Shown here piece by piece: positions 10,011 to 54,837 of a stretch of DNA of 59,922 nucleotides. The stretch's first letter is position 1. Each line of letters opens with the position of its first letter. The notes below the pieces were generated by a model. That model was not told the origin of the DNA and did not search any database. It saw only the letters and a program-made list of their open reading frames with translations. The stretch lies in the IMG/VR virus record IMGVR_UViG_3300032231_000003, positions 1-59,922 of that record; one strand, 5' to 3'. A program made the translations under genes and the position numbers. The stretch comes from a virus. Taxonomy: Duplodnaviria; Caudoviricetes.

Positions 10011-10907
10011 TTATGTTGTACCATCACTCCCATAGGCAATATGGGGAAGCCCATAACCAACATTATATCTTGCCTCTGCCCCATACTTATACTTGCCCTC
10101 ATCGAACACAATCTGAGATGAAGGATTCGTCATTGATACAGGGTGTATTGCTTCTCGCATTTGAAGAATAAAAGGTTTAAGTGGCTTTGTCACATCTAAC
10201 AGATACCACTTAGTTGGACTGGCTTCCAATTCAGGAATTATCATGTAATCCGCTGTGCCCTTCCAGGTATTTGTGGCCCCTGATGCTTTTCTTTCATCAA
10301 CAAGAACTGTCCGGAAATTTGTCTCCAATGATGGTGGCCCCACCAGTAAATTTCCGGATGTGTTCAAATAACGCCCTTCTTCTCCCGTTCGAGTCATCAT
10401 GCTTTTTCTGGCCGCAGCATACGCCACCCCACCCGAATCAAAAGCAGCGGTTCCTTTGTTAGACCATGTACCGCCTAATCCGTTGGGGTGGTCGGTATCA
10501 AAAAAGTACTGGCCATCATAACAAGTGGTAGTAAATCCCAAAGCCATCAATTCCGACAACAGGATACCAGGATGCTGTGCAGCAGCATCCCCAAGCATAC
10601 TTATAATAGGATCATACATACCAACATTATCATCTAGTATATCATCCCTATCTACCTCAATTGTACTTTCCCATCTTCTATTTACTATGGAATAGTTTGA
10701 ACTGGCAATGTTCTTTACATCTTTACCATTCAACCACTCTTTCAAAGTGGGAACTTGCTGTAGCCACGCGTAATCTTCGGTCTTCGTTTTACTTGGTACA
10801 ACTGTACTAAGCGTCTCATGAAACGTTTTCGTTTCATCTATTGCTTTGAAAAACTTAGCATTAAATCCTGTAAAAACAGAAGTCAACACTGACTTGTTTA
10901 TAATCAT
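10011..10907 (-). CDS. Major capsid protein, Mu gpT-like
   Basis: YAWL..P.LKEW, WESTIEVDRDDILDD, CYDGQYFFDTDHP, KPFILQMRE motifs. Confidence 0.93.
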   Translation of the reverse strand: MIINKSVLTSVFTGFNAKFFKAIDETKTFHETLSTVVPSKTKTEDYAWLQQVPTLKEWLNGKDVKNIASSNYSIVNRRWESTIEVDRDDILDDNVGMYDPIISMLGDAAAQHPGILLSELMALGFTTTCYDGQYFFDTDHPNGLGGTWSNKGTAAFDSGGVAYAAARKSMMTRTGEEGRYLNTSGNLLVGPPSLETNFRTVLVDERKASGATNTWKGTADYMIIPELEASPTKWYLLDVTKPLKPFILQMREAIHPVSMTNPSSQIVFDEGKYKYGAEARYNVGYGLPHIAYGSDGTT

Positions 10908-21168: not shown

Positions 21169-22619
21169 CAGAATTGTTTTTCCATTAAGTTGTACATTTC
21201 AAGATCCTCTTCCTGCGTTTCAGGTACTTCCAAATTCTGCCTGAACATCATCTGAGAAGCTTGGGTAAACCCCTTACTCGCAGCATCAACCCAATCGTCA
21301 TGTCCTCCATCAGGATAAAGAGACAATTCATCCAAAAAAGATTCCACATAATGTGTCCGAATCACACGACAAAGACCGTTTTCCGCTGCCGCACTTAAAA
21401 CCCCCGCCTGAATACTTTTATTTATCTTACTCTTAATTCCTCTTACTATGTAGCCAGGAAGTACTTTTCTTTGGTAATTTTCCGTATTAGCTTTTCCACT
21501 CGCCCCAGGCTCTTCCTCAAAAAAAACAGGAATACTGACACCATCCAACTTAGCTACCGCTTGTACTTTTCTTTCCACATTTAAAGGAGTTTTTCGTAAC
21601 CTCACATCCGGTTTGAAATAATATATTCCAGAATGAGATAGGTAAATTTTTACACCAGCCGTATAATCCGGATCTCTGTTCTTTTTACTCTTTTCTGTTG
21701 CCGCCAAATCATAAAAGCGACAAATATAAGCCGTATCTTTTTTACCAGGAGGGTTGTCCACTATCGGAAACCACGCTTCCTCAAACATACGCCCTTTTGC
21801 TTTTATATTCCAGTCACCCTCAGCCATTTGTTTCCGCAAAATAAGGTCTTCTATCCGATTTATCCTATCCCTGTAATCCTTAGTATCCAGTCCAGGATTA
21901 TCTTCCACAGAAGCAGGAATAAATACTGTTTTTTTATCTCTTGTTCTTGGATTTATATATTTTTCATACACCCAAGAACCTCTTTCTACCTGCTCTCTCG
22001 TAGGAGGGTTACTTGTCGCCCTAAAACGAATAGGCAGAAATTTATGTTTCAATAAACGTCTCATCCTGAGACTAATCAAATAATTAATTTGGTTTTGTCG
22101 TAGCTGTACCAACTCATCTGCACCAATAAACTGATATGCTGGCCCCTGATAATTAAAATGATCCATAGGCCCATCCAAATATCCAAACCCCAAAGTAGAA
22201 CCTGTACTAAAATGCCAAACTTTAGTATCCCCATCCCAACGCACCAAGTGTTTCAAGCTCTTAAACCACTCATGAGACTTTGTCAACAAACCCTCGGGCT
22301 TACTCAGATTAGAAGTAGTATCCCTCAACAAAAGAGCATTATACCCAGGGATATCCACCCATTGAAGCGCAGCCATCAACAAAGCACCACTCTTCCCACC
22401 CCCAGGCTGACCACCATAAAAAACTTCTTCCACATCATCACATAACAAAAAAGCCGTCTGCTTAGGTGACGGTAGATGATCCTTCGGAATAAACTGCCGT
22501 GTGTATTCGTTCGACAAAACACGCGGCAGTGTCGGCATCTTATAAATTTCAGACAGAGTATTCTTTTTACCCGTCTTATTCTTGATTGATCGTCTCAACT
22601 GCTTCACACGTAACCTCAA
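21168..22619 (-). CDS. terL: Terminase large subunit
   Basis: Walker A GGQPGGGKS, Walker B ADEL, TSNP, nuclease motifs YDLA and HDDWVDA. Confidence 0.95.
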   Translation of the reverse strand: MRLRVKQLRRSIKNKTGKKNTLSEIYKMPTLPRVLSNEYTRQFIPKDHLPSPKQTAFLLCDDVEEVFYGGQPGGGKSGALLMAALQWVDIPGYNALLLRDTTSNLSKPEGLLTKSHEWFKSLKHLVRWDGDTKVWHFSTGSTLGFGYLDGPMDHFNYQGPAYQFIGADELVQLRQNQINYLISLRMRRLLKHKFLPIRFRATSNPPTREQVERGSWVYEKYINPRTRDKKTVFIPASVEDNPGLDTKDYRDRINRIEDLILRKQMAEGDWNIKAKGRMFEEAWFPIVDNPPGKKDTAYICRFYDLAATEKSKKNRDPDYTAGVKIYLSHSGIYYFKPDVRLRKTPLNVERKVQAVAKLDGVSIPVFFEEEPGASGKANTENYQRKVLPGYIVRGIKSKINKSIQAGVLSAAAENGLCRVIRTHYVESFLDELSLYPDGGHDDWVDAASKGFTQASQMMFRQNLEVPETQEEDLEMYNLMEKQF

Positions 22620-23217
22620 TAGGGGCTTCTAAATCTTTTCTGGTTTGACTTAAAATTTTCAAAACTTCTTGCCAAGCACCTGTTTCTTTTTTCAACTTCT
22701 TAATAATTTCGTCATTCACGTAATTATCATCTATCGTGTGAACTTCTCTCTTTTCAGCCCACCTCTCAGGATCACGATTGGTCAGAAGTAGCTTAATAGC
22801 CGATAAGTCAGGAGGAATGTGTTTTTGCACAATCTTCTTACTGGCATATAACTTATCCTTACCAAAAAAAGTAGTTTCCTCTTTGTAGGTATATCCCAAA
22901 GCCCTTTTTAATAATTTCTTCTCTACCCTTTTTACAGTGAAATTATCAACCCCAATAGCTATAGAATCTTTAAAGGCAGGATATTTTTTTATCCAACAAG
23001 ATATTACATTTTCAGAAACGCCAAACGTCTTGGCAAGCTCCTTCTTATTAGCTCCAAAATAAGTACACACATTGCGAGCAACAATGCTAAAAGACGGATT
23101 GTATAAAGTAGTCCCATGCTTATAATCATCAAGTTCCCTCAAAGACACCAACTGCATTTCTACGTCCGTGTTTCTGGTGCTTGCTCTATTTCTTCTTTTA
23201 TTCTCTATTTTGCCCAT
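22576..23217 (-). CDS. terS: Terminase small subunit
   Basis: HTH (ELAKTFGVSENVISCW), LLKRALGY..PPD..AI..LL.NR.PE.W; directly upstream of terL; ATG 23217 preferred as start. Confidence 0.8.
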   Translation of the reverse strand: MGKIENKRRNRASTRNTDVEMQLVSLRELDDYKHGTTLYNPSFSIVARNVCTYFGANKKELAKTFGVSENVISCWIKKYPAFKDSIAIGVDNFTVKRVEKKLLKRALGYTYKEETTFFGKDKLYASKKIVQKHIPPDLSAIKLLLTNRDPERWAEKREVHTIDDNYVNDEIIKKLKKETGAWQEVLKILSQTRKDLEAPIEVTCEAVETINQE

Positions 23218-23946
23218 GCCTATTAAAACCCCTTTTATTTTAAATAACATTAAAACAGCACTTTGTAAACCCCTTTGTTCATTCTGTTCTTTTGTTACCA
23301 GAGGCAAACACAGACACATAAATATTGCATGGGGGGTGTAACTGTAATCATTTTTTGGGTGATTTCTGAAAAGTTCAAAAATTGGGGAGGGGGTTTGCCA
23401 TACCTCCATAGGGGGGGTACCTGATAAATAAAAACAAGATAATTTATTTTTTTAAACAAACCACCTTCCAACCACAAAGCAACACAACACCCTCTTACCT
23501 ACCTTCGTATTCATTCTTAGCGTTCCTCTCCGCTTGTTCTACAGCACACAAATGTAATAACAATCCCCTGCCATGTTCAGAAAATTACAGCCCCTTAAAA
23601 ACGCTGTATGTAATTTCAGTTTTTCTTTCCTTGAGCAGGAATTACAAATACAAAATTACAACTATTCTTATTACAGCTTTCTTCCCTTCTTTTATTCTGT
23701 AATTTCGTTTCTTATTCTCTTTCGTAATTTATCTTTGTAATTACTTTTTATTTCAGTATTAATGTGGGGCAAAAAATAGTACTTTTTTATCCACACCCCC
23801 CTTTTGTAATTTTACTTAATTGTTTTTTATTCAGACTTTGTGTGTTCTTTCTGTAATTACTTTAGTTTTTCGTTCTGTGGCTGCTCTCATATGCCAACTT
23901 GAACAAAAAAAATAGCTAAAAAAACGCATGTAATAATGCTATAAAA

Positions 23947-26597: not shown

Positions 26598-27083
26598 ATG
26601 GAACCCACAAAGATTTTTATACAAAGCTATAGAGGAAGCGTGTTTGATGGTAAATGGATAAGTCTCCCAATGGAGGAAGATGAGTTGAAAGATATTCTAC
26701 ACACCTACGATGAAAGGGAACTTTTTATTGCCGATAGCGAAGGGTTTCTTTCCTTTGATTTAAATGAAAGTGAAAACCTCGTTGAGTTAAATGAATTTCT
26801 CCTAAAATTGGAGAACTTGGACGAAGACAGCCAGCTAAAATGTAAGTTCCTACTAGAAACGCTCGTCGTACGCGACAGAGACGATGCCCTGGACAAGTAT
26901 GAAGATGTCTTTTTTTACAAAGGCATGACCTTATTAGATGTAGCACGTGACATGGTAGACTCCGGTTTTTTTGGTGACGTGAACAAGGAAATTGAAAAAT
27001 ACATCGATTTTCCCGCAATTGCAAGAGACCTTGAAATGGAGGGTTATGTTGAGACCAAAGAAGGCGTGTTTTTTTGTAATTAA
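26598..27083 (+). CDS. ardA: Antirestriction protein ArdA
   Basis: Acidic; GKWISLP, ELFIAD.E, E.ENL.ELNE, YIDF.AIARDL motifs. Confidence 0.88.
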   Translation: MEPTKIFIQSYRGSVFDGKWISLPMEEDELKDILHTYDERELFIADSEGFLSFDLNESENLVELNEFLLKLENLDEDSQLKCKFLLETLVVRDRDDALDKYEDVFFYKGMTLLDVARDMVDSGFFGDVNKEIEKYIDFPAIARDLEMEGYVETKEGVFFCN

Positions 27084-38243: not shown

Positions 38244-40805
38244 ATGAAAGGTTTTTTTGAAAAAATAGGAGTTAAAGAAGAATTTAATAAAATGACCGCT
38301 TCCTCTAAAAAACAAATTGATTCCTGTGAGGTGTGTGGTCTTTATAAATCTTGTAATGTTTCCCAAACAGGCTTATATGGAAAAGGAAAAAAAGAAATCC
38401 TTTTTATAACTACTTTCCCAAAAGAAGAGTCTATTTATATACTGGAAGAAGCCTTAGAAGCCTTGGACATTGTTTTAAAAAAAGATTGTTGGGTTTGTCC
38501 CTCCATACAATGTCATCCAGAAAGGGAACCTTCTCTTAAAGAAGTAACTTGCTGTCAAAAAAGAATAAATAAAATAATAAAAAAAATAAAACCTAAAAAA
38601 ATAATTCCATTAGGAAAATACCCCATAAACAGTTTGCTCTTGAAGCGGATGAATAGAATAGGTGAGGAACATAAATGGGTGGGTTTTTCTATTCCTGATT
38701 ATAAATATAATTGTTGGGTTTTTCCGAACTATTCTTTAGAGACAATGTACAACTATGATCTTGACGAAACATATAGAAATGATAAAAATGTTTTACATAA
38801 ACTGTTCAGGGGCAGTTTAAAAAAAGCCATTAAATGGAAAAAACCACTACCAGAAAAAGAAGACATTGAGAAAAAAGTAACAATTTTAACAAAAAAGCAG
38901 GACGTTATTTCCTGCCTTAAGAGGATAAAAAAAGACGCAAAAGAAATTGCTTTTGATTATGAAACAACGGGGTTGAAACCTTATAAAAAAGGACATAAGA
39001 TTGTCTGCATGAGCATTGCCGTTTCTTCTCAAGAAGTGTTTTCTTTTCCTGTTTATAAAGACACTGTTTTTTTAAAACTTTTAAAGGAAGTATTAACAGA
39101 TAAAAGTATTAAAAAAATAGCACAAAATGTTAAGTTTGAAGATATCTGGACAAGAGTTATTCTGGGATATAAACCTAAAGGTTGGGTATGGGATACCATG
39201 GTCAATGCTCATATAATAGACAATCGTACAGGCATCACAGGCTTGAAGTTCCAAGCATACATTAGATATGGAATTCTTGGATATGACCAAGAAGTAGAAA
39301 GATATATAAAAGGCACTAAAGAAGGGGAAAATGAAAAAGATGGAAACAGGATTAATCTGATTGAAAATGCTCCGTTAAAAAAGCTCCTTCTTTATTGTGG
39401 ATTAGACAGTCTCTTGGAATTTCGTCTTTATGAAGACCAGAAAAAAGAAATAAAAAATCTAAATCATTCCTTTTTTCTTAAAGCAACCAAAGCTTTTTCT
39501 GATATTCAAAAAAATGGAATATATGTTGACAAAAAACATTATATAAAAGAAAAAATAAAAGTAAAAAAAGAAATAACAGCCTTAAAAACAAAAATAAGAA
39601 ACTCCGAAGAACTTAAAAAAATAGAAAAGTTTAAAAGAAAAAGAAGTAATTTAGAAATAAAAAATGTTGTTAGTGACGATCAACTAAGAACATACCTGTT
39701 CAAAATTTTAAAAAAAGAGTGTGTAGAAAGAACAGAAAAAGGACTTGAGGCAGTGAGTGAGCCTGTTTTGCACAGATATGAAAACATATCCTTTATTAAG
39801 AATATTCTACAAATAAGGAAATTGAATAAACTCAGATCTACCTACATAGAAAGTTTTTTGAGAGAAGAGGTTAAAGGAAAAATACACCCTTTCTTCGATT
39901 TGAATAGGGCTGTCTCTTTCCGATCCAACTCATCAAACCCAAACTTTCAAAATATTCCTGTAAGGGATGAAACAGCCGGAAGGATAGCAAGAAAAGGGAT
40001 TATAGCAAGACCAGGGGAAATACTTCTTGAGTCGGATTATTCAGGCTTAGAAGTGGTTATTGGTGCTTGTCATCATAAAGATAAGAATATGATTAAATAT
40101 CTACTTGACCCGAAGTCAGATATGCATAGGGACACAGCAAAAGATATTTTTCTGTGCGAACAAGATGAAATTAGTAAAATGTGTAGGTTTTACACAAAAA
40201 ACGGTTTCGTTTTCCCTCAGTTCTATGGATCGTATTACAAAGAGTGCGCAAAGAATATGTGGGAGACAATTACAAACGAACGAGTACAATTAGAGTCGGG
40301 TGTTTTTGTTCTGGAGCATTTCTTTGAAAAAGGAATCATTTGTTACGAAGATTTCGAAGAGCACTTAAAATCTGTTGAAGATATTTTATGGAATAAGCGG
40401 TTTTATGGATATAAAAAATGGAAAGAAGATTTTTATGAAGAATATTGTAAAAAAGGGTATTTTTACTTAAAAACAGGTTTTAAGTGTTCTGGTTTTATGA
40501 AAAAAAATCAAGTGGTGAATTACCCAATACAAGGAAGTGCTTTCCATTGCCTTCTTTGGAGTCTCGTAGAGGCAAATAAGATTTTTAAAAGAGATAAATG
40601 TTTAGGGGCAAGTATTGCTGCCCAAATACATGATTCTCTGTTTGTGAGAACAAAAGAAGAAAAACTAAAAGAAGTTGTGGGAACAATAAAAAGAGTTTCC
40701 TGTGTAGAGTTACCTAAAGCATTTGAATGGATAACACTTCCTTTAAATGTTGAAATTAAAGTGGGTAAAAATTGGCACGAAACCACTAAATTAGAAATTG
40801 ATTGA
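38244..40805 (+). CDS. polA: Family A DNA polymerase with N-terminal UDG-like domain and 3'-5' exonuclease
   Basis: CEVCGL..C, QCHP..CC (UDG4-like); FDYETTG, YCGLDS; SDYSGLE, RFYTK..FYG, QIHDS. Confidence 0.93.
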   Translation: MKGFFEKIGVKEEFNKMTASSKKQIDSCEVCGLYKSCNVSQTGLYGKGKKEILFITTFPKEESIYILEEALEALDIVLKKDCWVCPSIQCHPEREPSLKEVTCCQKRINKIIKKIKPKKIIPLGKYPINSLLLKRMNRIGEEHKWVGFSIPDYKYNCWVFPNYSLETMYNYDLDETYRNDKNVLHKLFRGSLKKAIKWKKPLPEKEDIEKKVTILTKKQDVISCLKRIKKDAKEIAFDYETTGLKPYKKGHKIVCMSIAVSSQEVFSFPVYKDTVFLKLLKEVLTDKSIKKIAQNVKFEDIWTRVILGYKPKGWVWDTMVNAHIIDNRTGITGLKFQAYIRYGILGYDQEVERYIKGTKEGENEKDGNRINLIENAPLKKLLLYCGLDSLLEFRLYEDQKKEIKNLNHSFFLKATKAFSDIQKNGIYVDKKHYIKEKIKVKKEITALKTKIRNSEELKKIEKFKRKRSNLEIKNVVSDDQLRTYLFKILKKECVERTEKGLEAVSEPVLHRYENISFIKNILQIRKLNKLRSTYIESFLREEVKGKIHPFFDLNRAVSFRSNSSNPNFQNIPVRDETAGRIARKGIIARPGEILLESDYSGLEVVIGACHHKDKNMIKYLLDPKSDMHRDTAKDIFLCEQDEISKMCRFYTKNGFVFPQFYGSYYKECAKNMWETITNERVQLESGVFVLEHFFEKGIICYEDFEEHLKSVEDILWNKRFYGYKKWKEDFYEEYCKKGYFYLKTGFKCSGFMKKNQVVNYPIQGSAFHCLLWSLVEANKIFKRDKCLGASIAAQIHDSLFVRTKEEKLKEVVGTIKRVSCVELPKAFEWITLPLNVEIKVGKNWHETTKLEID

Positions 40806-40897
40806 GTAAGGAGAAGTAAGGAGCGAGTATAGCCCCCTAGGGGATCTTATTTCGTGAGGATTTGTAATTTTACATATATCATAAAGGAGACACCGAA

Positions 40898-41131
40898 ATG
40901 ATAATTTACAAAGCGGTCAAGAAGAATAGGGAGACCCAGGATAATACAAAATGGGCGATAGAATACTTAAATAACAGCCTTACCAAAGGTGCTACATATG
41001 CTGGTGCTTCTTCTGCTGCTACTACGCCTACGGCCACTGCTGCGGCTGATGCTGTATTTGTTGTTGTTTATGAGGAATTATTAAACAACGCGGTGGGGCG
41101 TGTTACGCGCCCCATCGTAGGGAGAGACTAA
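40898..41131 (+). CDS. Internally deleted paralog of 41134..41883
   Basis: Shares the N-terminus (IYK.V....ET...TKW.I), the NN..TK + Ala tract and the LLN.A end. Confidence 0.65.
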   Translation: MIIYKAVKKNRETQDNTKWAIEYLNNSLTKGATYAGASSAATTPTATAAADAVFVVVYEELLNNAVGRVTRPIVGRD

Positions 41132-41133
41132 AA

Positions 41134-41883
41134 ATGATGCTTTATAAAGTAGTTGATGAGAAAATGGAGACTCGTAACCACACAAAATGGGAGATAGGGG
41201 TGATGCGTAAAAAACCCATTATAGACAACCCAAGGATTTGTTCAAAGGATGTGTTCCACGCATATGAACACCTCAACCTCGCCCTGGTTTTTATGCACGT
41301 CCATCTTAAAATTAAATCTCCGAAAATTCTTAAATGTGAAGGGGAGATAATAATTAAAAAGAGCAATAAGGTGGGCGTTTTTGAACTAACTCCCATAGAA
41401 GAGATACCACTACCAGAGTGGCACACAGGTAATGACAAAAGAAAAATACTAAGTCTATCTTCGATTTATTGGGCAACAGAGGTGTTGCCTATTTTCGAAA
41501 AACGTTATCCAGACGACAATGGACCAAGGATAGCGATAGAGTCAACGGTAAAGTGTGTAAATAACAACTTTACTAAAACTGCTGATGCTGATGCTGCTGC
41601 TGATGCTGCTGATGCTGCTTATGCTTATGCTGCTGAAGTTGCTGATGCTGATGCTGATGCTTATGCTGCTGATGCTGATGCTGCTTATGCTGCTTATGCT
41701 GCTTATGCTGCTGCTTATGCTGCTGCTGCTGCTTATGCTGCTGCTGCTGCTTATGCTTATGCTTATGCTAAGGCTGCTACTTATGCGGCCCTCGCGGATG
41801 ATAAAATTAACTTAAATAAACTGCTAAACCAAGCCATTGCAGTAGTAGCGGGTGGGGGAAAAATATCACCGAAGTTTAGATGA
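41134..41883 (+). CDS. Imm5-like domain protein with an Ala/Asp/Tyr repeat tract
   Basis: WATEVLPIFEKRYPDDNGPRIAIE followed by AAYA-type repeats. Confidence 0.7.
   Translation: MMLYKVVDEKMETRNHTKWEIGVMRKKPIIDNPRICSKDVFHAYEHLNLALVFMHVHLKIKSPKILKCEGEIIIKKSNKVGVFELTPIEEIPLPEWHTGNDKRKILSLSSIYWATEVLPIFEKRYPDDNGPRIAIESTVKCVNNNFTKTADADAAADAADAAYAYAAEVADADADAYAADADAAYAAYAAYAAAYAAAAAYAAAAAYAYAYAKAATYAALADDKINLNKLLNQAIAVVAGGGKISPKFR
41581..41785 (+). repeat. GCT/GAT/TAT trinucleotide microsatellite
   Basis: ~200 bp built almost entirely from GCT, GAT and TAT. Confidence 0.95.
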
Positions 41884-41896
41884 AGGAGTAATCAAA

Positions 41897-42850
41897 ATGA
41901 TAGATACAAGGCGTGTGGAGGATGACATGACCTCCATGATGTCACAAGGGCATCTAAGAGCTGTTCACGACCACGTATACACACGAATACCGTTACTGCA
42001 CTGGCTTGGGAAAAAGGGCAGAAAAACAGTAGTCTTTGATGGGGAGAAAAGGACTACTGAGACTTTGCCTGTAACTAAGTCTAGTGACTTAGTGTTGCCA
42101 GTATCACCTAGCGCTAAACCACACTTAATAGCTGAATTTCCACATAAGAGCGTGTGTGGCGCGATAACAGTTAACATTACAGAATATTTACAGTACCCGA
42201 CGTACTTAAAGATGCTCATTGACAATAAAGTCAATAAACTAAAAGTGGCTATGTGTAACACATTAGGTGCCATGCTCTTTGGTGACGGCACAGGTAACAA
42301 GGGTAAGGACATAATGGGTTTGGCCGGTATCGTGGCTGATGACCCAACAACTGGCAGTCTCGGAGGTATCGACAGGAGCACTAACCCTTGGTGGCGAAAT
42401 GAAACTTTGGAAGGCGGTAAATTAGGTGCACCCTTTGACACGTTACTACGAAAAATGACGAGGATGTACGATGCGTGCTCCGAAGGGAGCGACCACCCTG
42501 ATTTAATTATCTGTGACCAGGCTACCTATGAGGCCTATGAGGGTCTAACACCTACATATGGCCGCTTTGTTGATGCGGATATGGCAAGGGCAGGATTTGA
42601 GAACCTTAAATTCAAAGGAGCTGTCGTAGTCTTTGACCCTGCGTGTCCATCTGACGCAAATCACGGGAAAATGTACTTTTTGAACAGCAAATACCTCTCA
42701 TGGACCGTAGACACGGAAGCAAACTTTGCCATGACACTTTTTAAGTTATATGGTTTCACACATTTCGTGTCAAAGGTCTTACTTATAGGCAACCTGATAA
42801 CCTCAAATTGCGCTAAGCATGGCGTGATTTATGACATTGATTTAAAGTAG
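41897..42850 (+). CDS. Second major-capsid-family protein (HK97 fold, podovirus-type family), outside the head operon
   Basis: LFGDGTGN.GKDI.GL..IV...PTTG..GGIDRS...WWRN, PDLII.D, AGFENLKFKG..VVFD, MYFLNSKY, GNL..SN....G motif order; AAGGAG RBS. Confidence 0.8.
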   Translation: MIDTRRVEDDMTSMMSQGHLRAVHDHVYTRIPLLHWLGKKGRKTVVFDGEKRTTETLPVTKSSDLVLPVSPSAKPHLIAEFPHKSVCGAITVNITEYLQYPTYLKMLIDNKVNKLKVAMCNTLGAMLFGDGTGNKGKDIMGLAGIVADDPTTGSLGGIDRSTNPWWRNETLEGGKLGAPFDTLLRKMTRMYDACSEGSDHPDLIICDQATYEAYEGLTPTYGRFVDADMARAGFENLKFKGAVVVFDPACPSDANHGKMYFLNSKYLSWTVDTEANFAMTLFKLYGFTHFVSKVLLIGNLITSNCAKHGVIYDIDLK

Positions 42851-42870
42851 GTGCTTCTAAAGGAGACGAT

Positions 42871-43662
42871 ATGTTTAAAACGCCCCAAGTCTTAGACCTT
42901 TTCAGTGGCATAGGTGGGTTTTCTTTAGGTCTTGAAAGAGCCGGATTCAAAACAGTAGCCTTTTGCGAAATAGATAAGAAAGCCCGACAAGTTCTGAAGA
43001 AACATTGGCCGACAATCCCCATTTACCAAAACATCAAGGAGCTAACTTGTGAAAAACTTAAAAAAGATGGAATCACAAACATTGAAATCATCTGCGGAGG
43101 TTTTCCCTGCCAAGACATCTCCAATCTTGGCCAAGGAGCAGGCATCAAAGGAGAACGCTCAGGGTTATGGTCGGAAATGTGCCGAGTTATTAGCGAGATA
43201 CGACCGCAATTCGCAATCGTGGAAAATGTGGCGGCTTTGCGAAGACGGGGACTGTCAAGAGTTCTCGGAGACTTGGCCGAGATCGGGTACGACACAGAAT
43301 GGCACTGCATACCGGCTTCCGCCGTTGGTGCGCCTCATCAGAGGGATAGACTCTGGATTATTGCCTACCCCCACGGCAAGCTGCGGTTTCCACTTAACAT
43401 TTACCCAAGAGCAGATAAGAAAAGTGTACAAACGGTCATGTGGAAGAACTTTTTCTTTGTCCGTAGCGGAACTAATGATTTTAAATTTCGGCAAGAAGAT
43501 CAATCCTATCTTTGTGGAGGAAATAATGGGCTATCCGCAAGGATGGACAGACTTAAGCAGTTAGGTAACGCTGTCGTACCACAAATCCCTGAGTTAATTG
43601 GCAGGGCTGTTTTGGAGGCAAGCAAAAAACAGCTTAAAAAAGGAGTCTATAATAAAACATGA
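42871..43662 (+). CDS. DNA cytosine-5 methyltransferase, large (alpha) polypeptide
   Basis: Motifs I DLFSGIGG, IV GGFPCQ, VI ENV, VIII HQRDR, X LGNAVVPQ; motif IX not evident. Confidence 0.92.
   Translation: MFKTPQVLDLFSGIGGFSLGLERAGFKTVAFCEIDKKARQVLKKHWPTIPIYQNIKELTCEKLKKDGITNIEIICGGFPCQDISNLGQGAGIKGERSGLWSEMCRVISEIRPQFAIVENVAALRRRGLSRVLGDLAEIGYDTEWHCIPASAVGAPHQRDRLWIIAYPHGKLRFPLNIYPRADKKSVQTVMWKNFFFVRSGTNDFKFRQEDQSYLCGGNNGLSARMDRLKQLGNAVVPQIPELIGRAVLEASKKQLKKGVYNKT
43049..43564 (+). CDS. Overlapping +1-frame ORF, putative methyltransferase beta polypeptide
   Basis: 171 codons nested in the MTase gene; LLPTPTAS and motif IX-like INPIFVEEIMGYPQGWT. Confidence 0.72.
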   Translation: MKNLKKMESQTLKSSAEVFPAKTSPILAKEQASKENAQGYGRKCAELLARYDRNSQSWKMWRLCEDGDCQEFSETWPRSGTTQNGTAYRLPPLVRLIRGIDSGLLPTPTASCGFHLTFTQEQIRKVYKRSCGRTFSLSVAELMILNFGKKINPIFVEEIMGYPQGWTDLSS

Positions 43663-44609
43663 CACAAACAGAATTCAACAGTCTGCTACTGCTACCGCTG
43701 CATTATAAAGTAGCAATAGCACTAAGCAAAATAAGAGAGTGGTACGAACTGCATAACGGTATGGTATACGTGGCCTTTTCCGGCGGGAAGGATTCCACCG
43801 TTCTCCTACACCTTGTCCGTTCTCTGTATCCCGAAGTTCCGGCAGTATTCAGCGACACGGGCCTTGAGTTTCCAGAATTACGGAGTTTTGTTAGGGACAC
43901 GCCCAATGTGGTGCTCGTGAAACCGAAACTTTCATTCAGGGAGGTAATAGAACAGTATGGTTGACCTGTGCCTTCCAAGGACATAGCGAGAAAAGTACGG
44001 CAGTTGTCCAGAACGCAATCGGCATACCTTGCCTGCCGGACTTTCTACGGGAGGGACTGCAATCCTCAAGGAACCAAACGATGTAATGTTGAGTGCGCAG
44101 AACGAAATAAAACGACAACTTGCGCCAAGGATAATGCAAAGCTCCCTAACAAGTGGCGGTTCTTATTAGACGCTCCTTTTCCCATATCTGACGCATGCTG
44201 CGACAAGTTGAAGAAGTATCCAGGGAAGCAGTATCAAAAGGAAACAGGCAGGGTTCCATTTATAGGGATAAGAGCGGACGAGTCCTCTCTCAGAACAAAG
44301 TATTATAAGGAGCAGGGATGTAATTTTATGGGAAGAGAGCCGAAGTCCAAGCCGCTGTCACTGTGGCGGGAAGAGGATATATGGGCTTATATCCAACAGA
44401 GCAACCTTCCCTACGCAACCATATATGACAAGGGGTATAAGACCACAGGCTGCGTTTTCTGCGGCTTCGGAGCGTATCAGGAACAGAAGAAAACCGGCAC
44501 TAACCAATTTATTTTATTGAAGCAATCCCATCCTAAATTGTGGCGGTACTGCATAAAAAACTTAGGAATGAGTGAGGTATTGGACTACGTAGGGATAAAA
44601 TATAAATAA
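43659..44609 (+). CDS. PAPS-reductase/PP-loop family protein with an in-frame TGA at 43962-43964
   Basis: FSGGKDS and SDTGLEFPE before the stop; CCDKLKK, GIRADES, GCVFC after it in the same frame (EQYG*PVPSK). Confidence 0.85.
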
Positions 44610-44639
44610 ACGCATTACCTAAAACTAAAGGAGATTATT

Positions 44640-45338
44640 ATGTGCGCTTTTTTCTCGTTTTGTACTACCCCAGAGGGTGTTTACCTCTATTTCAATGCTA
44701 AAGAAAGAAAAGAATTAAAAAAACACAATTCTAATAACCACTCCTCTGACTCGCATACGTCGATAGCCCATAGATACGGGTATATCGGAGCGTATGAGGA
44801 CACACTAACGAAGTGGGAATACAACCCACTGACGAAGGAGCTAAAACTTGATACTAAAGGAGAGACCCCGCCATGTAAGAGGGATGTCTTAGCGTATTTA
44901 CACAAGTTGGATTTCCAGCAGATGGCACCTGAATTGATTATGAAGAAAATTATCAATCCTTTTGCGATAGCACCGCCTAAGGAAATAACACCAGAGATAA
45001 TAGCTCTCGTGCACGAGTGGGCTTCTGCGGCGGATTCTGTGTGGGATGTCTTGTGGGACACCTTGGATGCTTCTGTAGACGCTAATATATGGAGTACGGT
45101 GGTAAATGAGGTGTGGGCTGTGTCGTGGGGCGACATGGATGATTCCCTGATATATCCCATGAGGGCGTCCATGCTGGATTCTGTGAGAGGGTACACGACT
45201 TCTTTCTTCAAAATAGAATATGAAACGGATTTCTCGTCGATAATAAAGTTGTGGGAGATGGGGCTGGTTCCGTACAACGACGGCTCCCGCTGGTATCTGC
45301 ATAGCCAAAATGGGGTTGTGTGGGAAAAGAAAATATAA
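44640..45338 (+). CDS. Hypothetical protein with degenerate Trp-Ser-Val repeats
   Basis: MC.FFS..DSH start, WASAADSVWDVLWD tract, LWEMGLVP; RBS. Confidence 0.78.
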   Translation: MCAFFSFCTTPEGVYLYFNAKERKELKKHNSNNHSSDSHTSIAHRYGYIGAYEDTLTKWEYNPLTKELKLDTKGETPPCKRDVLAYLHKLDFQQMAPELIMKKIINPFAIAPPKEITPEIIALVHEWASAADSVWDVLWDTLDASVDANIWSTVVNEVWAVSWGDMDDSLIYPMRASMLDSVRGYTTSFFKIEYETDFSSIIKLWEMGLVPYNDGSRWYLHSQNGVVWEKKI

Positions 45339-45369
45339 GATATACAACTTTTTGGATAGAGGTTTTGTA

Positions 45370-45783
45370 ATGAAAAAGGAGTTCAGTTTGGGGGCTATAC
45401 TAACGTTAACATGCGGGTGTAACTTCTTAGGGCTGTATGACGACGAGAAAATAGAATGTTTTATCTTGGGAATAGGTGAGTACAAACACATGTTGAGTTA
45501 TTGTGAGCCAGGTTGTTTTGTAAAAAAGAAATTCTCTCAATTGGATATTTGTAAGAATAAACTCTTAAATGATTTATATCAGACGCTAATCTATAAAGCA
45601 ACCTCCCAGAGAGACAAAAGCAAAAACATATCGCTTGTAAAAAAGTTTATATATGACGTTGGAGAGGTGTATGGACATAAACACTTTGTAGGGCAAATGC
45701 CTCTGAGCAAAAGGAAAAGAGCCCGCATAAGGAAAACAGCTAATGGATGCGTAGCCATAGTGCTCGGCTATGTAGGAATATAG
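45370..45783 (+). CDS. Hypothetical protein
   Basis: ATG 45370 after a GAGG RBS. Confidence 0.65.
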   Translation: MKKEFSLGAILTLTCGCNFLGLYDDEKIECFILGIGEYKHMLSYCEPGCFVKKKFSQLDICKNKLLNDLYQTLIYKATSQRDKSKNISLVKKFIYDVGEVYGHKHFVGQMPLSKRKRARIRKTANGCVAIVLGYVGI

Positions 45784-45806
45784 TATGAATAAACACAAGG
45801 GGGAAT

Positions 45807-45941
45807 ATGATGATATTTGAATTTTTAAAAAGCATTCCGTTAGAAATGATGCTGTTTGCAGGGATGCTGGCAGCAGCCGTCACGTGGGTAACTGTGCTCC
45901 TTATAGTAATATGGTGGGACATTCGGGAGGATAAAAACTGA
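45807..45941 (+). CDS. Small single-pass membrane protein (44 aa, not in the track)
   Basis: AAGGGGG RBS; MMIFEFLKSIPLEMMLFAGMLAAAVTWVTVLLIVIWWDIREDKN. Confidence 0.6.
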   Translation: MMIFEFLKSIPLEMMLFAGMLAAAVTWVTVLLIVIWWDIREDKN

Positions 45942-46056
45942 GTAAACGACTCTCCCTTATAGGATTTTATTTTGGTGAGAGTGCCACAAGGAAACAGTTC
46001 CAATGATTTATTTGATTTTTCTGTCAAATGGAGCAAGAAATTGGAGAAAAAAGAAA

Positions 46057-46251
46057 ATGTGTCTTCATGTACCCCGATTCCGAACTAAAAAAACACTTTG
46101 TAATAAAAAATACATAAAACAAAAACCAACAAAGAATTCTGTGTTGTGCTTAAAGTGTGTGGTTATACATGCTATGTTAGATAAAAATTTTATGGAGGTT
46201 TTTGATGATTTTTATTCAAAAACTAACACAAGATTGACATTTCGTCATTAA
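46057..46251 (+). CDS. Small hypothetical protein, possible Zn finger
   Basis: H..C..CLKC spacing; GGAG upstream. Confidence 0.4.
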   Translation: MCLHVPRFRTKKTLCNKKYIKQKPTKNSVLCLKCVVIHAMLDKNFMEVFDDFYSKTNTRLTFRH

Positions 46252-46314
46252 ATTAGTGAGTGTTTTAAATAGATTTCTTGCAACAACTCTTTAGAAAATA
46301 AAGGAAAAACAAAG

Positions 46315-47238
46315 GTGGCAGGATTAGATATAATATATAGACCCAATTGTTTCGAACAAATAGTTGGGCACGACGAAACAAAAAATTCTTTAGAAAAATT
46401 ATTAGGAAAAAAAAACAAACCTCAAACCTTTCTGTTTCATGGCCCTTCGGGTTGTGGAAAAACAACTTTTGCTAGAATTATAGGTTCAATCTTAGAATGC
46501 AATCCAATAGATTTCCATGAAATAAATGCTTCTGTGGACAGAGGAATTGATTCTATAAGAGATATTGTTAAAAAAGCTAAATACTATCCTGTTTTAGGTA
46601 AAGTCAGCATATACTTGTTGGACGAAGCACACCAGATTACGGGTGCAGCCCAAAACGCATTACTAAAAATATTAGAGGATGTTCCAAAACACGCCGTTTT
46701 TATTTTATGCACAACAGAGGTGAATAAAATAATTCCCACAGTTAGAAGTAGGTGTGTTATCTACGACATACCCCCTTTAACTAAAAAAGAAACTTTTTTC
46801 TTATTGGACACTGTCTCAAAAAAAGAAAAAGAGACTGTTCTACAGAAAGAAATTAAATTAAAAATTTATGAAATGTCGGAAGGGATGCCAAGAGCCTCTC
46901 TAAAGTTATTAGAAAAGATTATAGACATTAAACACACCAAAGAAAGCTTAAGTTTATTAAGGATAGACCAAGAAAAGGAAGGAGAAATCATTGATTTAGC
47001 CAGAATACTTGTTCATTCTGGAAAAACATGGAGAGATGTTTGTGCCGTTTTGTGTTCTTTAAAAAAGGAAGACCCTGAAAAAATAAGAAGAGTTATTCTT
47101 TCTTATTGTTCCTCTATTCTTCTAAACGGTAGCAGGCAGGAAAAGGCTTCTGTGATTATGAATAATTTTTCAGAACCTTTTTATGACACAGGTTTTCCAG
47201 GAGTAGTTTTGGCTTGTTACGAGTCGTTATTTGTTTAA
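46315..47238 (+). CDS. Clamp loader AAA+ ATPase (DnaX/RFC-like)
   Basis: YRP..F.QIVG, GPSGCGKTT, LDEAH, NALLKILED, SRC motifs. Confidence 0.92.
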   Translation: MAGLDIIYRPNCFEQIVGHDETKNSLEKLLGKKNKPQTFLFHGPSGCGKTTFARIIGSILECNPIDFHEINASVDRGIDSIRDIVKKAKYYPVLGKVSIYLLDEAHQITGAAQNALLKILEDVPKHAVFILCTTEVNKIIPTVRSRCVIYDIPPLTKKETFFLLDTVSKKEKETVLQKEIKLKIYEMSEGMPRASLKLLEKIIDIKHTKESLSLLRIDQEKEGEIIDLARILVHSGKTWRDVCAVLCSLKKEDPEKIRRVILSYCSSILLNGSRQEKASVIMNNFSEPFYDTGFPGVVLACYESLFV

Positions 47239-47249
47239 AGGAGTTTTTT

Positions 47250-47450
47250 ATGATAGAGATTAAAGTTTTTTTTGAAAAAACCATACCAACAGTAGAGTAT
47301 GGTAATACAAAAGTAAATGTAGAGTACAGAAGCACAACAAAAGAGGGGGTAAATGGAAAAGGAATAGAAGAAGAAACAGAACGTTTGTTTTCTATTGCCA
47401 AAAGATTTGTTAACAAAAAAGAACGCATGATAACAAAAGGATATTCTTAA
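47250..47450 (+). CDS. Hypothetical protein
   Basis: ATG 47250 after AAGGAG. Confidence 0.6.
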   Translation: MIEIKVFFEKTIPTVEYGNTKVNVEYRSTTKEGVNGKGIEEETERLFSIAKRFVNKKERMITKGYS

Positions 47451-47473
47451 AATTACTAAGAAAGGGATTTATA

Positions 47474-47908
47474 ATGGATGTAAGTGTTTTTGAAAAAGAT
47501 TCTAGCATTAATCCAAACAGACTGGATGAAGAGTGTTTGAAAATGGCGGGGTTGTTTGCAAAATACTCTGGAAACGTAAGTTTTTTAAACAAGAAAAAAA
47601 TGGTGGCAAAAGAAAATCTAAATTTTATAGAATCTTCTTTAAAAAGAAAAATTCGGAAAAATCCAAAAAAATATGGAATTAATGGATCTCCCACCAATGA
47701 GATAGTGAAGGAGGTGTGTCAAACAAAAAACAGCTATAGAGAAGCATACGACGCCCTAATACAATCTACTTGGGAAGTAGATGAGGCGAACACACTTTTA
47801 GGGACAATCGAAACAAAAAAATACCAGTTGAATAATTTAATTCAATTGTTTCTCTCTGAATATTATATAAACTCAGGGAAAAAAAGAAAAGAAAGGAGGG
47901 TTAAGTAA
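47474..47908 (+). CDS. UvsY-like recombination mediator
   Basis: 144 aa, helical; directly upstream of the SSB and RecA genes. Confidence 0.55.
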   Translation: MDVSVFEKDSSINPNRLDEECLKMAGLFAKYSGNVSFLNKKKMVAKENLNFIESSLKRKIRKNPKKYGINGSPTNEIVKEVCQTKNSYREAYDALIQSTWEVDEANTLLGTIETKKYQLNNLIQLFLSEYYINSGKKRKERRVK

Positions 47909-51733: not shown

Positions 51734-52786
51734 ATGATAAAAAAAATAGAAATAAAAAACTTTCTAAGTCATGCCGAAACAAAACTTGTTCTTAATCCAG
51801 GAGTTAACGTTATTGTCGGAAGTGGAGGTTCCGGCAAAAGCTCAATAGTCAGAGCTTTGTTTTGGTGTATCTTTAACAAACCCGTGGGAGATTCTTTTAT
51901 TTCTTGGGGAGAAAAGGAAGCAAAAATAAAACTAACCGTAAAAGAGGGAATTGTTATAAGAAAAAAATCCTCTTCTTTTAATGGATACGTTGTTAAAAAG
52001 GGAAGGTCTCTTTTTAACATGAGAGCAATAGGAACAACCGTTCCTAACGAAGTAAACGCGGTTCTTAACATGAAAGAACTGAATGTTCAACAACAAGACG
52101 ACTCCCCCTACTTTATAGGGGAGTCGTCCAAAATAGGGGAAAAGCTGGCAGAAGCCGCTAATCTAACAATAATTCCTAAATCTCTGATACACATTAAAAG
52201 AGAAATAAATGAAACAAAAAAAGAAATTAGTTTTTTAAAAAATGAACTTGCTATTAATCAAAATAAATTAAAAAAATATAAGGGAATTAACACCCTTTCT
52301 CTGACAGCAAAACAAATAAATAAAAGGAAAGAAGAACTAAAAAAGAAAAAAGAAAAAGTAGAAAAAATAGAAAAAATAATTTTAAAAAGAGAGTGTCTGA
52401 AAAAAGAAAACACAAGAAGAAAGAGTTTGGTTCAACACAAAGAATCCATTATTCTTCTGGATAAAAGAAACTGTGAATTTAAAAAGACAAAAAAAAGGAA
52501 AGAAAAGCTTTTACACATAACAAAAGATTACAAAAAAATACTGCCTTTTTTGGATAAACTAAAAAGTTTCAAACAAGACAAAACTAAGGTAAATCTTTTA
52601 GTAGAAAAATTAAAAGAAAAGAACAAAAAACAAGAAAAATTAAAAGAAATACACTATCTGATTAAAAAAATAAAAGAATACACACAAGAAAAAGATTATT
52701 TAATTTCTAAAATAAACGCTGCAAAAGACACCTTCAACAAGAAAATGCCTAAAATTTGCCCATTATGTGGAAGAGGGGAAAAATGA
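51734..52786 (+). CDS. Rad50/SbcC-like ATPase, N-terminal half
   Basis: IKNFLSH, Walker A GSGGSGKS, Q-loop, coiled coil; ends at the Zn hook CPLCG. Confidence 0.88.
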   Translation: MIKKIEIKNFLSHAETKLVLNPGVNVIVGSGGSGKSSIVRALFWCIFNKPVGDSFISWGEKEAKIKLTVKEGIVIRKKSSSFNGYVVKKGRSLFNMRAIGTTVPNEVNAVLNMKELNVQQQDDSPYFIGESSKIGEKLAEAANLTIIPKSLIHIKREINETKKEISFLKNELAINQNKLKKYKGINTLSLTAKQINKRKEELKKKKEKVEKIEKIILKRECLKKENTRRKSLVQHKESIILLDKRNCEFKKTKKRKEKLLHITKDYKKILPFLDKLKSFKQDKTKVNLLVEKLKEKNKKQEKLKEIHYLIKKIKEYTQEKDYLISKINAAKDTFNKKMPKICPLCGRGEK

Positions 52787-53061: not shown

Positions 53062-54018
53062 ATGAAAAAAAAGAATAAAGAAAGACCTGATGCCATACTA
53101 ACGGGCGACATCCATTTAAGAGAAACTTCCCCTGTTTGTAGAACCGACAATTTTTTTAAAACACAAGAAAAAAAATTACAATTTATAAAAAACCTACAAA
53201 ACGAGAATGAACAAATTCCTGTTTTAGATTCAGGAGATATTTTTGATTCTCCTAAACCATCTAACTATCTTGTAGGATGGGCCTTGGAACACTTACCAAG
53301 TCCTTTTATCTCTGTTTGTGGGAATCATGACATCCCCAATCATGATTTGAAACTCCTTAGTAAATCGGGGGTAAATGTCTTAAACAAAGCAAAAACAGGA
53401 CAAACAGTTATTTCTAAGCTGGCATACGAGGATATTACTTTTAGATGTAGGGAAGACAGTTCTATTTTAATAAAAGTAAGTGGTATTCCTTGGGAAAAAA
53501 AAGAAAAACTGGATAAAAAGATAAAAAAAGATGAAAAAATAAAAAGAGTGCTACTTACCCACTGTCCCACCTATAAAAAAAAGGTCTTATGGAAAGGAAT
53601 GAAGGCCATAAAAGCGGATATTCTTTTACAGAAATTACATTTATTTGATTTAGTAGTAACAGGACATATCCATTTGCCCTATTCTCTTAAAACGAATAAA
53701 AATGTTTTGGTAAACCCCGGCTCTTTGACTAGAACCACCATAGCACAACTGGAACACACACCAAGAGTTTACTTCTGGTATGCAAAAAGTAACAGAATAA
53801 AAAAAGTTTTTTTACCTATTGAAAAGAATGTTATGGATTTAGAAATAATAGACGACAAAGAAAAAGAAGAGCTTTTAAATCAGTTTATGGAGGAAATGAC
53901 TAATAAATCACAAATAGGTATTGATTTTGAAGAAAACGTGTCGCATTTTCTGTCAAAAAACAAAATAAATAAAAAAACAAAAAGCATAGTGAAGGAGATT
54001 TTATGGAAAGTGGGTTAA
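53062..54018 (+). CDS. Mre11/SbcD-like metallophosphoesterase nuclease
   Basis: GDIH, GDIFD, GNHD, GHIH, NPGS motifs. Confidence 0.9.
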   Translation: MKKKNKERPDAILTGDIHLRETSPVCRTDNFFKTQEKKLQFIKNLQNENEQIPVLDSGDIFDSPKPSNYLVGWALEHLPSPFISVCGNHDIPNHDLKLLSKSGVNVLNKAKTGQTVISKLAYEDITFRCREDSSILIKVSGIPWEKKEKLDKKIKKDEKIKRVLLTHCPTYKKKVLWKGMKAIKADILLQKLHLFDLVVTGHIHLPYSLKTNKNVLVNPGSLTRTTIAQLEHTPRVYFWYAKSNRIKKVFLPIEKNVMDLEIIDDKEKEELLNQFMEEMTNKSQIGIDFEENVSHFLSKNKINKKTKSIVKEILWKVG

Positions 54019-54248
54019 TAGAAAGTGAGTTGATGGAACTAAAAGCAAAAATTGAACAAATGGAAAAAAGGTTAAACGAAAGCAGGGGAGTGGAGCGGGC
54101 ATTATTAGACCAATTAAAAACATTAAACATTTCTTCTTTTAAAGAGGCTGAAACAATACTGTGGGAATTAGAAAAAACAATAAAAAAGGAAGAAAAAAAA
54201 TTACAGGAAGAATTAGAAGAACTTATGGATAAATTTTATGAGAATTAA
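54003..54248 (+). CDS. Short coiled-coil protein
   Basis: 81 aa with a heptad pattern; AAGGAG RBS. Confidence 0.72.
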   Translation: MESGLIESELMELKAKIEQMEKRLNESRGVERALLDQLKTLNISSFKEAETILWELEKTIKKEEKKLQEELEELMDKFYEN

Positions 54249-54837
54249 TGATATAATAAGAGAATTACAAACTAGATTAGGACAAAAAAAAGAAATACAA
54301 AAAGACATCATTGTAAAAAAAAAGAAAATAAAAGAATTACAAACTGTACTTTTGCATCAGGAAGAAGCACAAAAAATATTAATTGATGTGAGTAACAAAA
54401 CACAAGAAAAATTAAATTATAATTTGAGTGAGCTTACTTCCTTGTGTTTAAACACAGTAATGAAAGAAGATTACAAATTTAAGTTTAATTTTGAATCTAA
54501 ACGGGGAAAGGTGGAAGGGGTTCCCTTTTTCGTGAAAGGTCAGCGTTTAGTCAAGCCTTGTTTTGATGGAGGAAGCCCTAAGGATATAGCTTCTTTTTCT
54601 TTGCGTATTTCTTCTTGGAAGTTACTGATAAAAAAAACAAGAAATACTTTCATTTTGGATGAACCATTCAAAAATGTGAGTAAAGACCTACAGCCTCAAC
54701 TTTGTAAAATCATACAAAGAATTAGTAAAGATTTTGGGATACAGTTTATCATTGTGTCACACAACGAAGAACTGATTAAAAGTGCTGATAAAATATTTGT
54801 CTGCACAAAGAAAAAAGGTATTACTGATTGTAAATAA
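54238..54837 (+). CDS. Rad50/SbcC-like ATPase, C-terminal half
   Basis: Degenerate signature DGG, Walker B ILDEPF, H-loop IVSH. Confidence 0.85.
   Translation: MRINDIIRELQTRLGQKKEIQKDIIVKKKKIKELQTVLLHQEEAQKILIDVSNKTQEKLNYNLSELTSLCLNTVMKEDYKFKFNFESKRGKVEGVPFFVKGQRLVKPCFDGGSPKDIASFSLRISSWKLLIKKTRNTFILDEPFKNVSKDLQPQLCKIIQRISKDFGIQFIIVSHNEELIKSADKIFVCTKKKGITDCK

Follow-up and report, generated by a model that had tools for sequence, protein, structure and literature searches.

Two HK97-fold shell genes can share one phage genome, as in T4, where gp24 is a close paralog of gp23 that is encoded by the adjacent gene, expressed late and present in the virion. As weapons, capsid homologs have so far been documented for satellites acting against their helpers. 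The described case is Ccm of the satellite SaPIbov5, an HK97-fold homolog of the helper capsid protein with 24% identity to it (available text of PMC8569155 and PMC5052747). According to the available text of PMC8569155, Ccm differs from the helper protein mainly in the N-arm and E-loop, fills pentamer positions and cannot make the intercapsomeric contacts that would let it close a shell alone. In capsids of this type, the same text describes A-domains packing the capsomer centre, each E-loop resting on the spine helix of a neighbour, and P-domains making most of the contacts between capsomers. Here we analyse a gene, P0001, that encodes a second, foreign HK97-fold capsid-protein homolog of 317 amino acids (aa), identified by sequence, profile and structural model at 41897..42850 (+ strand) of the IMG/VR virus record IMGVR_UViG_3300032231_000003. 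The whole record, 59,922 bases, classed as linear and with a CheckV completeness of 69, is hereafter called the window.

Like Ccm as described in that text, P0001 is a capsid homolog whose carrier does not depend on it for a full shell, and its divergence falls chiefly in the N-arm and E-loop. Unlike Ccm, which is satellite-borne and targets a helper with a similar capsid, the carrier of P0001 is a complete phage with an unrelated capsid of its own. Any target of P0001 would be a third party, for the protein resembles clade-A podophage major capsid proteins (MCPs) and not the resident MCP (E 3.1). The described Ccm includes a delta domain and P0001 does not, being a bare MCP of 317 aa; the action of Ccm has been demonstrated, whereas that of P0001 is predicted. 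In contrast to the T4 pair, the two shell-type genes of this phage have no sequence relationship and lie far from each other, one on each strand. Searching the literature for phage-borne second or orphan capsid genes acting as decoys or poisons, we found only the satellite Ccm work and no published example in which the carrier of such a capsid-like gene is a complete phage. Two apparent precedents were rejected: the 'second major capsid protein' of PMC11445458 denotes, in the available text, a second subunit at the portal, and 'decoy' in the available text of a 2026 bioRxiv paper is a mass-spectrometry term. With modest confidence, and judging from its sequence, we regard P0001 as a Ccm-like capsid homolog that is here phage-borne, a single case with a clear evolutionary signature and a predicted function.

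A capsid-protein homolog outside the head module

The P0001 open reading frame (ORF) runs from an ATG at 41897 to a TAG stop at 42848-42850. Read from the sequence, a Shine-Dalgarno motif, GAAGGAG (41882..41888, + strand), lies 8 nt 5' of the ATG and overlaps the TGA (41881-41883) that ends the upstream ORF. P0001 matches PHROG 9953, 'major head protein', with an expectation value (E) of 4.6e-49, residues 21-311 aligning to profile positions 22-326 of 329; this is a weaker score than that of the canonical gene at the closest viral locus, L002 (E 5.2e-84). Using tblastn against 50,697 phage records, we matched 66 records, all at less than 60% identity and five with at least 80% query cover. Among the best 40 of these 66, the matched gene was annotated as major capsid, head or virion structural in 38, as hypothetical in one and not at all in one. 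The matches include Mx8, Stenotrophomonas BUCT555, Bradyrhizobium ppBjS10J-1 and the Brucella Tb group, and the annotated MCPs are 25-31% identical to P0001. A collection of 5.8 billion protein clusters yielded 71 matches, P0001 itself included, the best ten being 319-325 aa long and 41-49% identical. The sole match in a sequence search of the PDB was the cyanophage A-1(L) capsid chain 7f38_A (E 5e-4). Nothing in Pfam-A matched at E<=1; some canonical relatives carry PF17236 (SU10_MCP), a model that misses P0001. A single-protein pattern scan of viral contigs found no relative. P0001 also had no match in PADLOC and is not in a known anti-defence family.

Structure prediction pointed to the same family. 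An AlphaFold2 model built from a 63-row alignment (predicted local distance difference test, pLDDT, 87.9; predicted template-modelling score, pTM, 0.86) had as its top Foldseek matches in the PDB the capsids of cyanophage Mic1, A-1(L), T5 and SU10, and a BFVD search with the model returned viral capsid proteins. The ESM Atlas single-sequence model of the identical sequence (pTM 0.78) superposes over residues 1-317 on capsid clusters with template-modelling scores of 0.86-0.88. P0001 is a true HK97-fold MCP homolog of the Mx8/SU10/Brucella-Tb podophage type. An encapsulin would share with it the use of the HK97 fold outside the virion. Encapsulins enter the Foldseek list from rank 8 downward, below the capsids, and in contrast to an encapsulin P0001 has sequence relatives that are all viral capsids and a carrier that is a virus. 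No cargo-type family was recognised among its neighbours, where targeting peptides were not formally searched. With viral capsids as relatives and no such neighbour, the encapsulin reading is without support.

The phage has a head module of its own. The resident MCP, of Mu gpT type, is encoded at 10011..10907 on the - strand (Pfam Mu-like_gpT, E 6.1e-81), ~31 kb from P0001 and on the opposite strand, and we detected no sequence similarity between the two proteins (BLASTP E 3.1). Family matches on the same - strand identify TerS (22576-23409), TerL (21168-22619), the portal (19075-21168) and the protease (11393-12706), so the module looks complete for TerS, TerL, portal, protease and MCP. Family matches of the neighbouring genes place no portal, scaffold or protease next to P0001. 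With genes for packaging, head formation, replication and lysis, the carrier is a phage in its own right and not a satellite. An intact 317-aa ORF with a strong ribosome-binding site (RBS), a podovirus-type HK97 capsid family, a separate Mu-like capsid gene ~31 kb away on the other strand and a lack of head-gene neighbours had all been claimed for this locus from the letters alone (hereafter the original prediction), and all are borne out.

P0001 belongs to the replication arm, a + strand region (24.5-57.9 kb) with genes for a helicase, primase, DnaB, DNA polymerase, clamp loader, UvsY- and UvsX-like proteins, RusA, an endolysin and SbcCD-like proteins, and it is co-oriented and tightly spaced with the polymerase, a methyltransferase and other genes of the arm. 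Synteny and GC content delimit an insertion at 40806..46314 (+ strand), between the DNA polymerase (38244-40805) and clamp-loader (46315-47238) genes. This island spans 5.5 kb and holds seven ORFs, in the order 77-aa ORF, 249-aa ORF, P0001, methyltransferase, PAPS-reductase, 232-aa ORF and 157-aa ORF. Through the polymerase we found four distant phage relatives (32-39% identity). The one with the longest flanks, L082, has a syntenic replication arm, and synteny is partial in the other three. The clamp-loader gene follows the polymerase after ~270 bp in L082 and ~500 bp in L085, two of the three informative relatives; L084 has no clamp-loader match downstream of the polymerase, and L083 ends within the polymerase. 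Adjacency of polymerase and clamp loader in two of three relatives argues that the 5.5-kb block is a lineage-specific insertion. GC content climbs from 0.29-0.35 to 0.40-0.50 between ~40.8 and 45.4 kb (higher-GC part ~40.84-45.39 kb). At third codon positions (GC3) it reaches 0.44-0.53 in five of the seven island ORFs; the 77-aa ORF (0.41) and the repeat-rich 249-aa ORF (0.28) lie lower. The corresponding values are 0.25-0.33 in flanking replication genes and 0.28-0.43 in head genes.

These data bear on whether P0001 might serve this phage's own head as an additional structural protein, at a vertex or penton like T4 gp24, or form an alternative shell. P0001 and the resident MCP both have the HK97 fold, and the available text of PMC8569155 describes Ccm, a 24%-identical homolog, taking pentamer positions among the hexamers of another protein. 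The two families here, however, lack detectable similarity, and P0001 sits in the replication arm on the strand opposite to the head genes. The island is absent from two of the three informative syntenic relatives, one relative also lacking an adjacent clamp loader, and its foreign codon composition leaves little time for co-adaptation. A role in the phage's own head thus appears very improbable.

Family members elsewhere occupy a different setting. We collected 202 family-encoding loci, 80 viral, 80 metagenomic and 42 from genomes or metagenome-assembled genomes. At L002, the closest viral locus (44% identity), the order is TerL, a 478-aa ORF, the MCP gene and virion genes. A homolog of the L002 downstream virion gene lies 1-6 kb past the capsid gene at 48 of the 80 viral loci (L002 included) and at 37 of the 122 others, and many of the remaining loci are short contigs. 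The relatives of P0001 are ordinary capsid genes in head modules; P0001 lies outside any head module.

Regional divergence of P0001

Aligned with its ten nearest proteins, P0001 is conserved over residues 128-274 and 298-317 and strongly diverged over residues 1-127 and 275-297. Its E-loop region carries a 7-residue deletion, and the diverged stretches have lost the motifs YGKN.TVKSYSGY, ISR.EERKNSG and RPENQDAKTAQIL. Taking the columns at least 90% conserved among the ten nearest proteins, we counted 4 of 15 retained in residues 1-30, 11 of 45 in residues 49-110, 69 of 81 in residues 111-282 and 1 of 12 in residues 283-297. The deletion, the lost motifs and these counts agree with the conserved centre and C terminus, and the shortened, divergent N terminus and E-loop region, that had been read from the sequence by recall of the family.

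In HK97, the elements that join subunits and capsomers into a shell are the N-arm, the E-loop, the spine helix and the P-domain hairpin. Mapped through model secondary structure and the standard HK97 topology, in agreement with the domain description in the available text of PMC8569155, the diverged parts of P0001 probably correspond to the N-arm helices, E-loop, spine helix and turn of the long P-domain hairpin, and the conserved parts to the A-domain and C-terminal strand.

The contrast between conserved core and diverged periphery is specific to P0001. Compared with the canonical protein P0002, it is 68% identical over the core, about the closeness seen between clade members, and 27% identical over the periphery; another canonical member, P0009, is 63% and 76% identical to P0002, respectively. 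The core of P0001 is 55-69% identical to those of its ten nearest relatives, and within the nearest clade conservation is greater in the periphery (66-76% identity) than in the core. We measured branch lengths on a fixed 19-sequence LG+G4 tree (164 core and 160 periphery columns). The P0001 terminal branch came to 0.30 substitutions per site in the core and 1.93 in the periphery, which evolved ~6x faster; other clade members have core/periphery branch ratios of ~1 (for example, 0.299 and 0.245 for P0009). A core-only tree placed P0001 within or at the base of the nearest clade, at nodes with only 37-55% bootstrap. In a periphery-only tree, P0001 sat on a branch of 1.78, showing no affinity to any subgroup.

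The same signature stood out across the family. At columns at least 80% conserved in the 62 other members, P0001 retains 27 of 27 core residues but 8 of 20 peripheral ones, the losses falling in the N-arm, the E-loop base, the spine-helix cap and the putative P-domain hairpin patch. Its periphery retention is the lowest of the 63 (next 0.57, median 0.95), and the protein with the second-lowest value, P0052, is also low in the core (0.75). We repeated the scoring on an independent hmmalign-based alignment of 264 sequences, 243 of them full-length (P0001 included). The core-minus-periphery difference was 0.013 +/- 0.093 among full-length members and 0.52 for P0001; the next full-length scores, 0.33 and 0.29, both belong to proteins that are also core-divergent, and only genes cut by contig ends scored comparably to P0001. 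The canonical MCPs of Mx8, SU10, Brucella Tb, BUCT555 and A-1(L) thus share with P0001 PHROG 9953, a length class (317 versus ~324 aa) and a fold. P0001 differs from them in lying outside a head module and in having lost 12 of 20 conserved periphery residues and seven residues of the E-loop region. A core that is kept, a periphery that is lost and a frame that stays open together offer a simple computational means of seeking further cases.

We considered several other sources of this divergence. Compensated frameshifts were rejected, since the other frames of 41801-42900 show no family similarity. Recombination with a sampled divergent relative was rejected because a search of 1.84 billion representatives with the N-terminal 127 aa alone returned no member of the family at E<=0.001. 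Drift under AT pressure was rejected on the share of F, Y, M, I, N and K residues (FYMINK) in the periphery, 0.294 in P0001 and 0.287-0.358 in its ten nearest relatives. The N-terminal 127 aa had as sole matches three repeat proteins of 1,670-2,189 aa. Residues 13-70 weakly match a ~100-residue tandem repeat of these giant proteins (whole-protein E down to 3.8e-13, summed over 6-7 stretches), which we judged to be chance accumulation over the repeats.

Neutral decay fits the open frame poorly. Among single-base changes to the periphery codons of P0001, 61 create a stop and 1,012 a replacement. An analytic estimate, which ignores mutation bias and indels, gives ~17.8 nonsense events for a branch of 1.93 over 153 codons under neutrality and a probability of ~2e-8 of seeing none; even a branch of 0.8 gives 6e-4, and none was seen. 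With the open frame and the fold both retained, simple decay is disfavoured and a release from the constraints of shell building favoured. It follows that selection for an open frame, a foldable product and an unchanged A-domain acted along the long branch, while the residues of the shell interfaces were freed or driven to change. The original prediction had named a one-off, neutrally decaying acquisition lacking orphan homologs as the outcome that would undo it; we found P0001 to be one-off, and the open frame speaks against neutral decay.

A candidate capsid mimic

The explanation we place first, tentatively, is that P0001 may be a capsid mimic that joins or caps the capsomers of a rival with a canonical family capsid and thereby blocks shell closure. 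It ranks highest because the A-domain, which packs the capsomer, is kept and the parts that link subunits and capsomers are changed. P0001 would have been captured from a podophage with an Mx8/SU10-like MCP and would now be cargo in an accessory island of an unrelated phage (~87 kb) with a Mu gpT-type head. No longer building a shell, it would act as a soluble capsid look-alike that enters or caps the capsomers of a competing phage or satellite using a canonical family capsid and derails their assembly. That a complete phage has weaponised a copy of a rival's capsid, keeping the A-domain for acceptance and rewriting the N-arm, E-loop and P-loop interfaces against shell joining, is a more doubtful proposition. 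An uncontrolled complex prediction pairing P0001 with the canonical P0002 gave a median score of 0.31 against a mark of 0.32 and weighs on neither side. The domesticated capsid suggested by the original prediction survives in part, as an orphan, foreign, intact HK97 homolog with rewritten interfaces, and its encapsulin variant lacks support. If true, the capsid-mimic explanation would extend the Ccm idea to phage-phage competition and supply a natural example of an HK97 building block turned inhibitor.

Several observations weigh against such a role. P0001 is a singleton, the only member of its 90% cluster, on one contig, with a nearest protein 49% identical, and its divergence pattern recurs in none of the 242 other full-length family members. 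Matches to the window's methyltransferase, polymerase or clamp loader were found by tblastn at 0 of the 80 viral and 0 of the 122 other loci, so the orphan copies beside methyltransferase or replication genes that the original prediction had proposed to seek in other genomes number 0 across the 202 loci; a weak PAPS-reductase-like match occurs at one locus in each set, and a weak helicase-like match at one genome locus. Taken together, the singleton status, the unrepeated pattern and the empty locus survey mean that neither recurrence nor purifying selection in the orphan state can be shown. Against a nearest relative of 49% identity, synonymous sites are saturated and the ratio of non-synonymous to synonymous rates is not computable. 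The fold that the original prediction proposed to check is upheld by AlphaFold2, Foldseek, BFVD and ESM Atlas, and the models are uninformative on E-loop integrity: the E-loop is low-confidence coil in both AlphaFold models (pLDDT 51-64 in P0001, 64-75 in P0002), so a structural defect cannot be judged from them. The PAPS-reductase-family gene (43659..44609, + strand; BrxP/DndC-like matches) has an in-frame TGA at codon 102 (43962-43964), where two phage homologs have Tyr. We rejected recoding, as TGA ends 18 of the 66 complete genes in the window; an ordinary stop there means a real interruption, the gene is a pseudogene or a read-through gene, and the island cargo is not all maintained. Finally, the foreign GC3 of the island indicates that P0001 may have arrived recently and that most of its divergence may predate this phage.

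Foreign composition and an interrupted neighbour are what would be expected if P0001 were passenger DNA, part of a recent foreign block at a recombination-prone spot, without function here and intact for lack of time. Its divergence would then have arisen in the donor, perhaps in an element where the gene was already exapted. The singleton status fits, as do the absence of the island from two of the three informative distant relatives and our search of the island DNA against 50,697 phage records, which found no relative except methyltransferase fragments in eight records. Passenger DNA, however, leaves the origin of the divergence unexplained. The periphery is 66-76% identical within the clade and 27% in P0001 with frame and fold kept, which implies that some lineage maintained it as a non-canonical protein, and the strong RBS is positioned for coupling with the upstream gene. 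We consider this a serious possibility short of an even chance, ranking close behind the capsid mimic and ahead of, in order, an immune decoy, a component of the phage's own head and mis-assembly. Even as passenger DNA, the case would record a polymerase-clamp loader hotspot for accessory genes in this phage group.

The accessory island and its assembly

The gene nearest to P0001 on its 3' side, 20 nt away, encodes a C5 cytosine DNA methyltransferase by family match (42871..43662, + strand). It bears on a further proposal, that P0001 is an immune decoy which titrates or pre-empts a host defence that senses capsids. Capsid proteins are known to trigger bacterial immunity, as described for CapRel in the available text of PMC9712102, and the replication arm also holds genes of counter-defence type, namely this adjoining methyltransferase and an anti-restriction-like gene at 26598-27083. 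Against a decoy, the resident capsid comes from an unrelated family, so that P0001 would be no obvious lure for a sensor of that capsid; P0001 has no PADLOC match and belongs to no known anti-defence family; and the literature searched yielded no published capsid-paralog decoy. We regard a decoy as improbable. The anti-restriction-like gene (phrog_2059, E 2.4e-13) lies on the same + strand arm and represents further counter-defence cargo.

Upstream of P0001, the 77-aa ORF (40898..41131, + strand) is a short DUF7666-like paralog whose 5' DNA is 71% identical to the start of the 249-aa ORF (repeat D3). The 249-aa ORF (41134..41883, + strand) combines a weak, sub-threshold N-terminal profile match to DUF7666 with an Ala/Asp/Tyr tract, the latter encoded by a hexanucleotide tandem array of TGCTGA/TGCTTA (~32 copies, 41579-41786). 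Downstream, the 232-aa ORF (44640..45338, + strand) belongs to a virus-only family of unassigned function and is structurally near DUF7666-bearing clusters. One cluster near its structure has DUF7666 in 31% of members. As many as three of the island genes may thus be DUF7666-like; we found no mention of DUF7666 in the literature searched.

Each boundary of the high-GC block is marked, within ~50 bp, by a copy of AGTATAGCCCCC, a 12-nt perfect inverted pair with its left copy at 40826..40837 (+ strand) and its right copy at 45390..45401 (- strand). The motif occurs exactly twice in the window. The pair could form the ends of a mobile cassette, a reading of uncertain significance, as chance alone predicts an inverted pair of 12 nt within 6 kb of sequence. 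Neither a target duplication nor a recombinase was seen for the island. Scanning 40300-46500 for promoters and terminators gave nothing above chance, with 8 promoter-like sites (13.2 expected) and 4 terminator-like sites (4.5 expected).

We assessed the contiguity of the locus with a separate assembly of one public DNA run, which is possibly the window's own source and so not independent sampling; among the runs listed for 39500-47500, none was of RNA. That assembly breaks within the tandem repeat at 41580-41757, just 5' of P0001; it has no piece over 39767-41368 and none bridging the repeat at 41.6-41.75 kb. A 46.6-kb contig (depth 32, no differences) spans 41728-47500 and hence P0001, the methyltransferase and the clamp loader, which puts P0001 and the replication arm on one physical piece. 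On the left side of P0001, the listed pieces leave the junction through the repeat unbridged. For the chimeric contig that the original prediction had raised, the right side is thus linked and the left junction unbridged. An assembly artefact, in which a capsid-like gene of another virus was joined to this genome by mis-assembly, would account for the break in the repeat and the missing piece. It is opposed by the linkage in the 46.6-kb contig to an arm that is syntenic with the polymerase side in relatives, in a run that is perhaps the window's source, and we rate it the least probable of the explanations considered.

The same contig runs 40.8 kb past 47500, ~28 kb beyond the end of the window, which fits the CheckV value of 69% and a genome of ~87-88 kb. 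Elsewhere in the replication arm, an SbcC-like ATPase is seemingly in two pieces, an N-terminal and a C-terminal one, that flank an SbcD-like phosphoesterase (51734-52786, 53062-54018 and 54238-54837). Within the head module, a 1,195-aa gene at 13283-16870 matches virion-structural PHROGs solely in its C-terminal part and, at 0.46, exceeds its neighbours in GC content.

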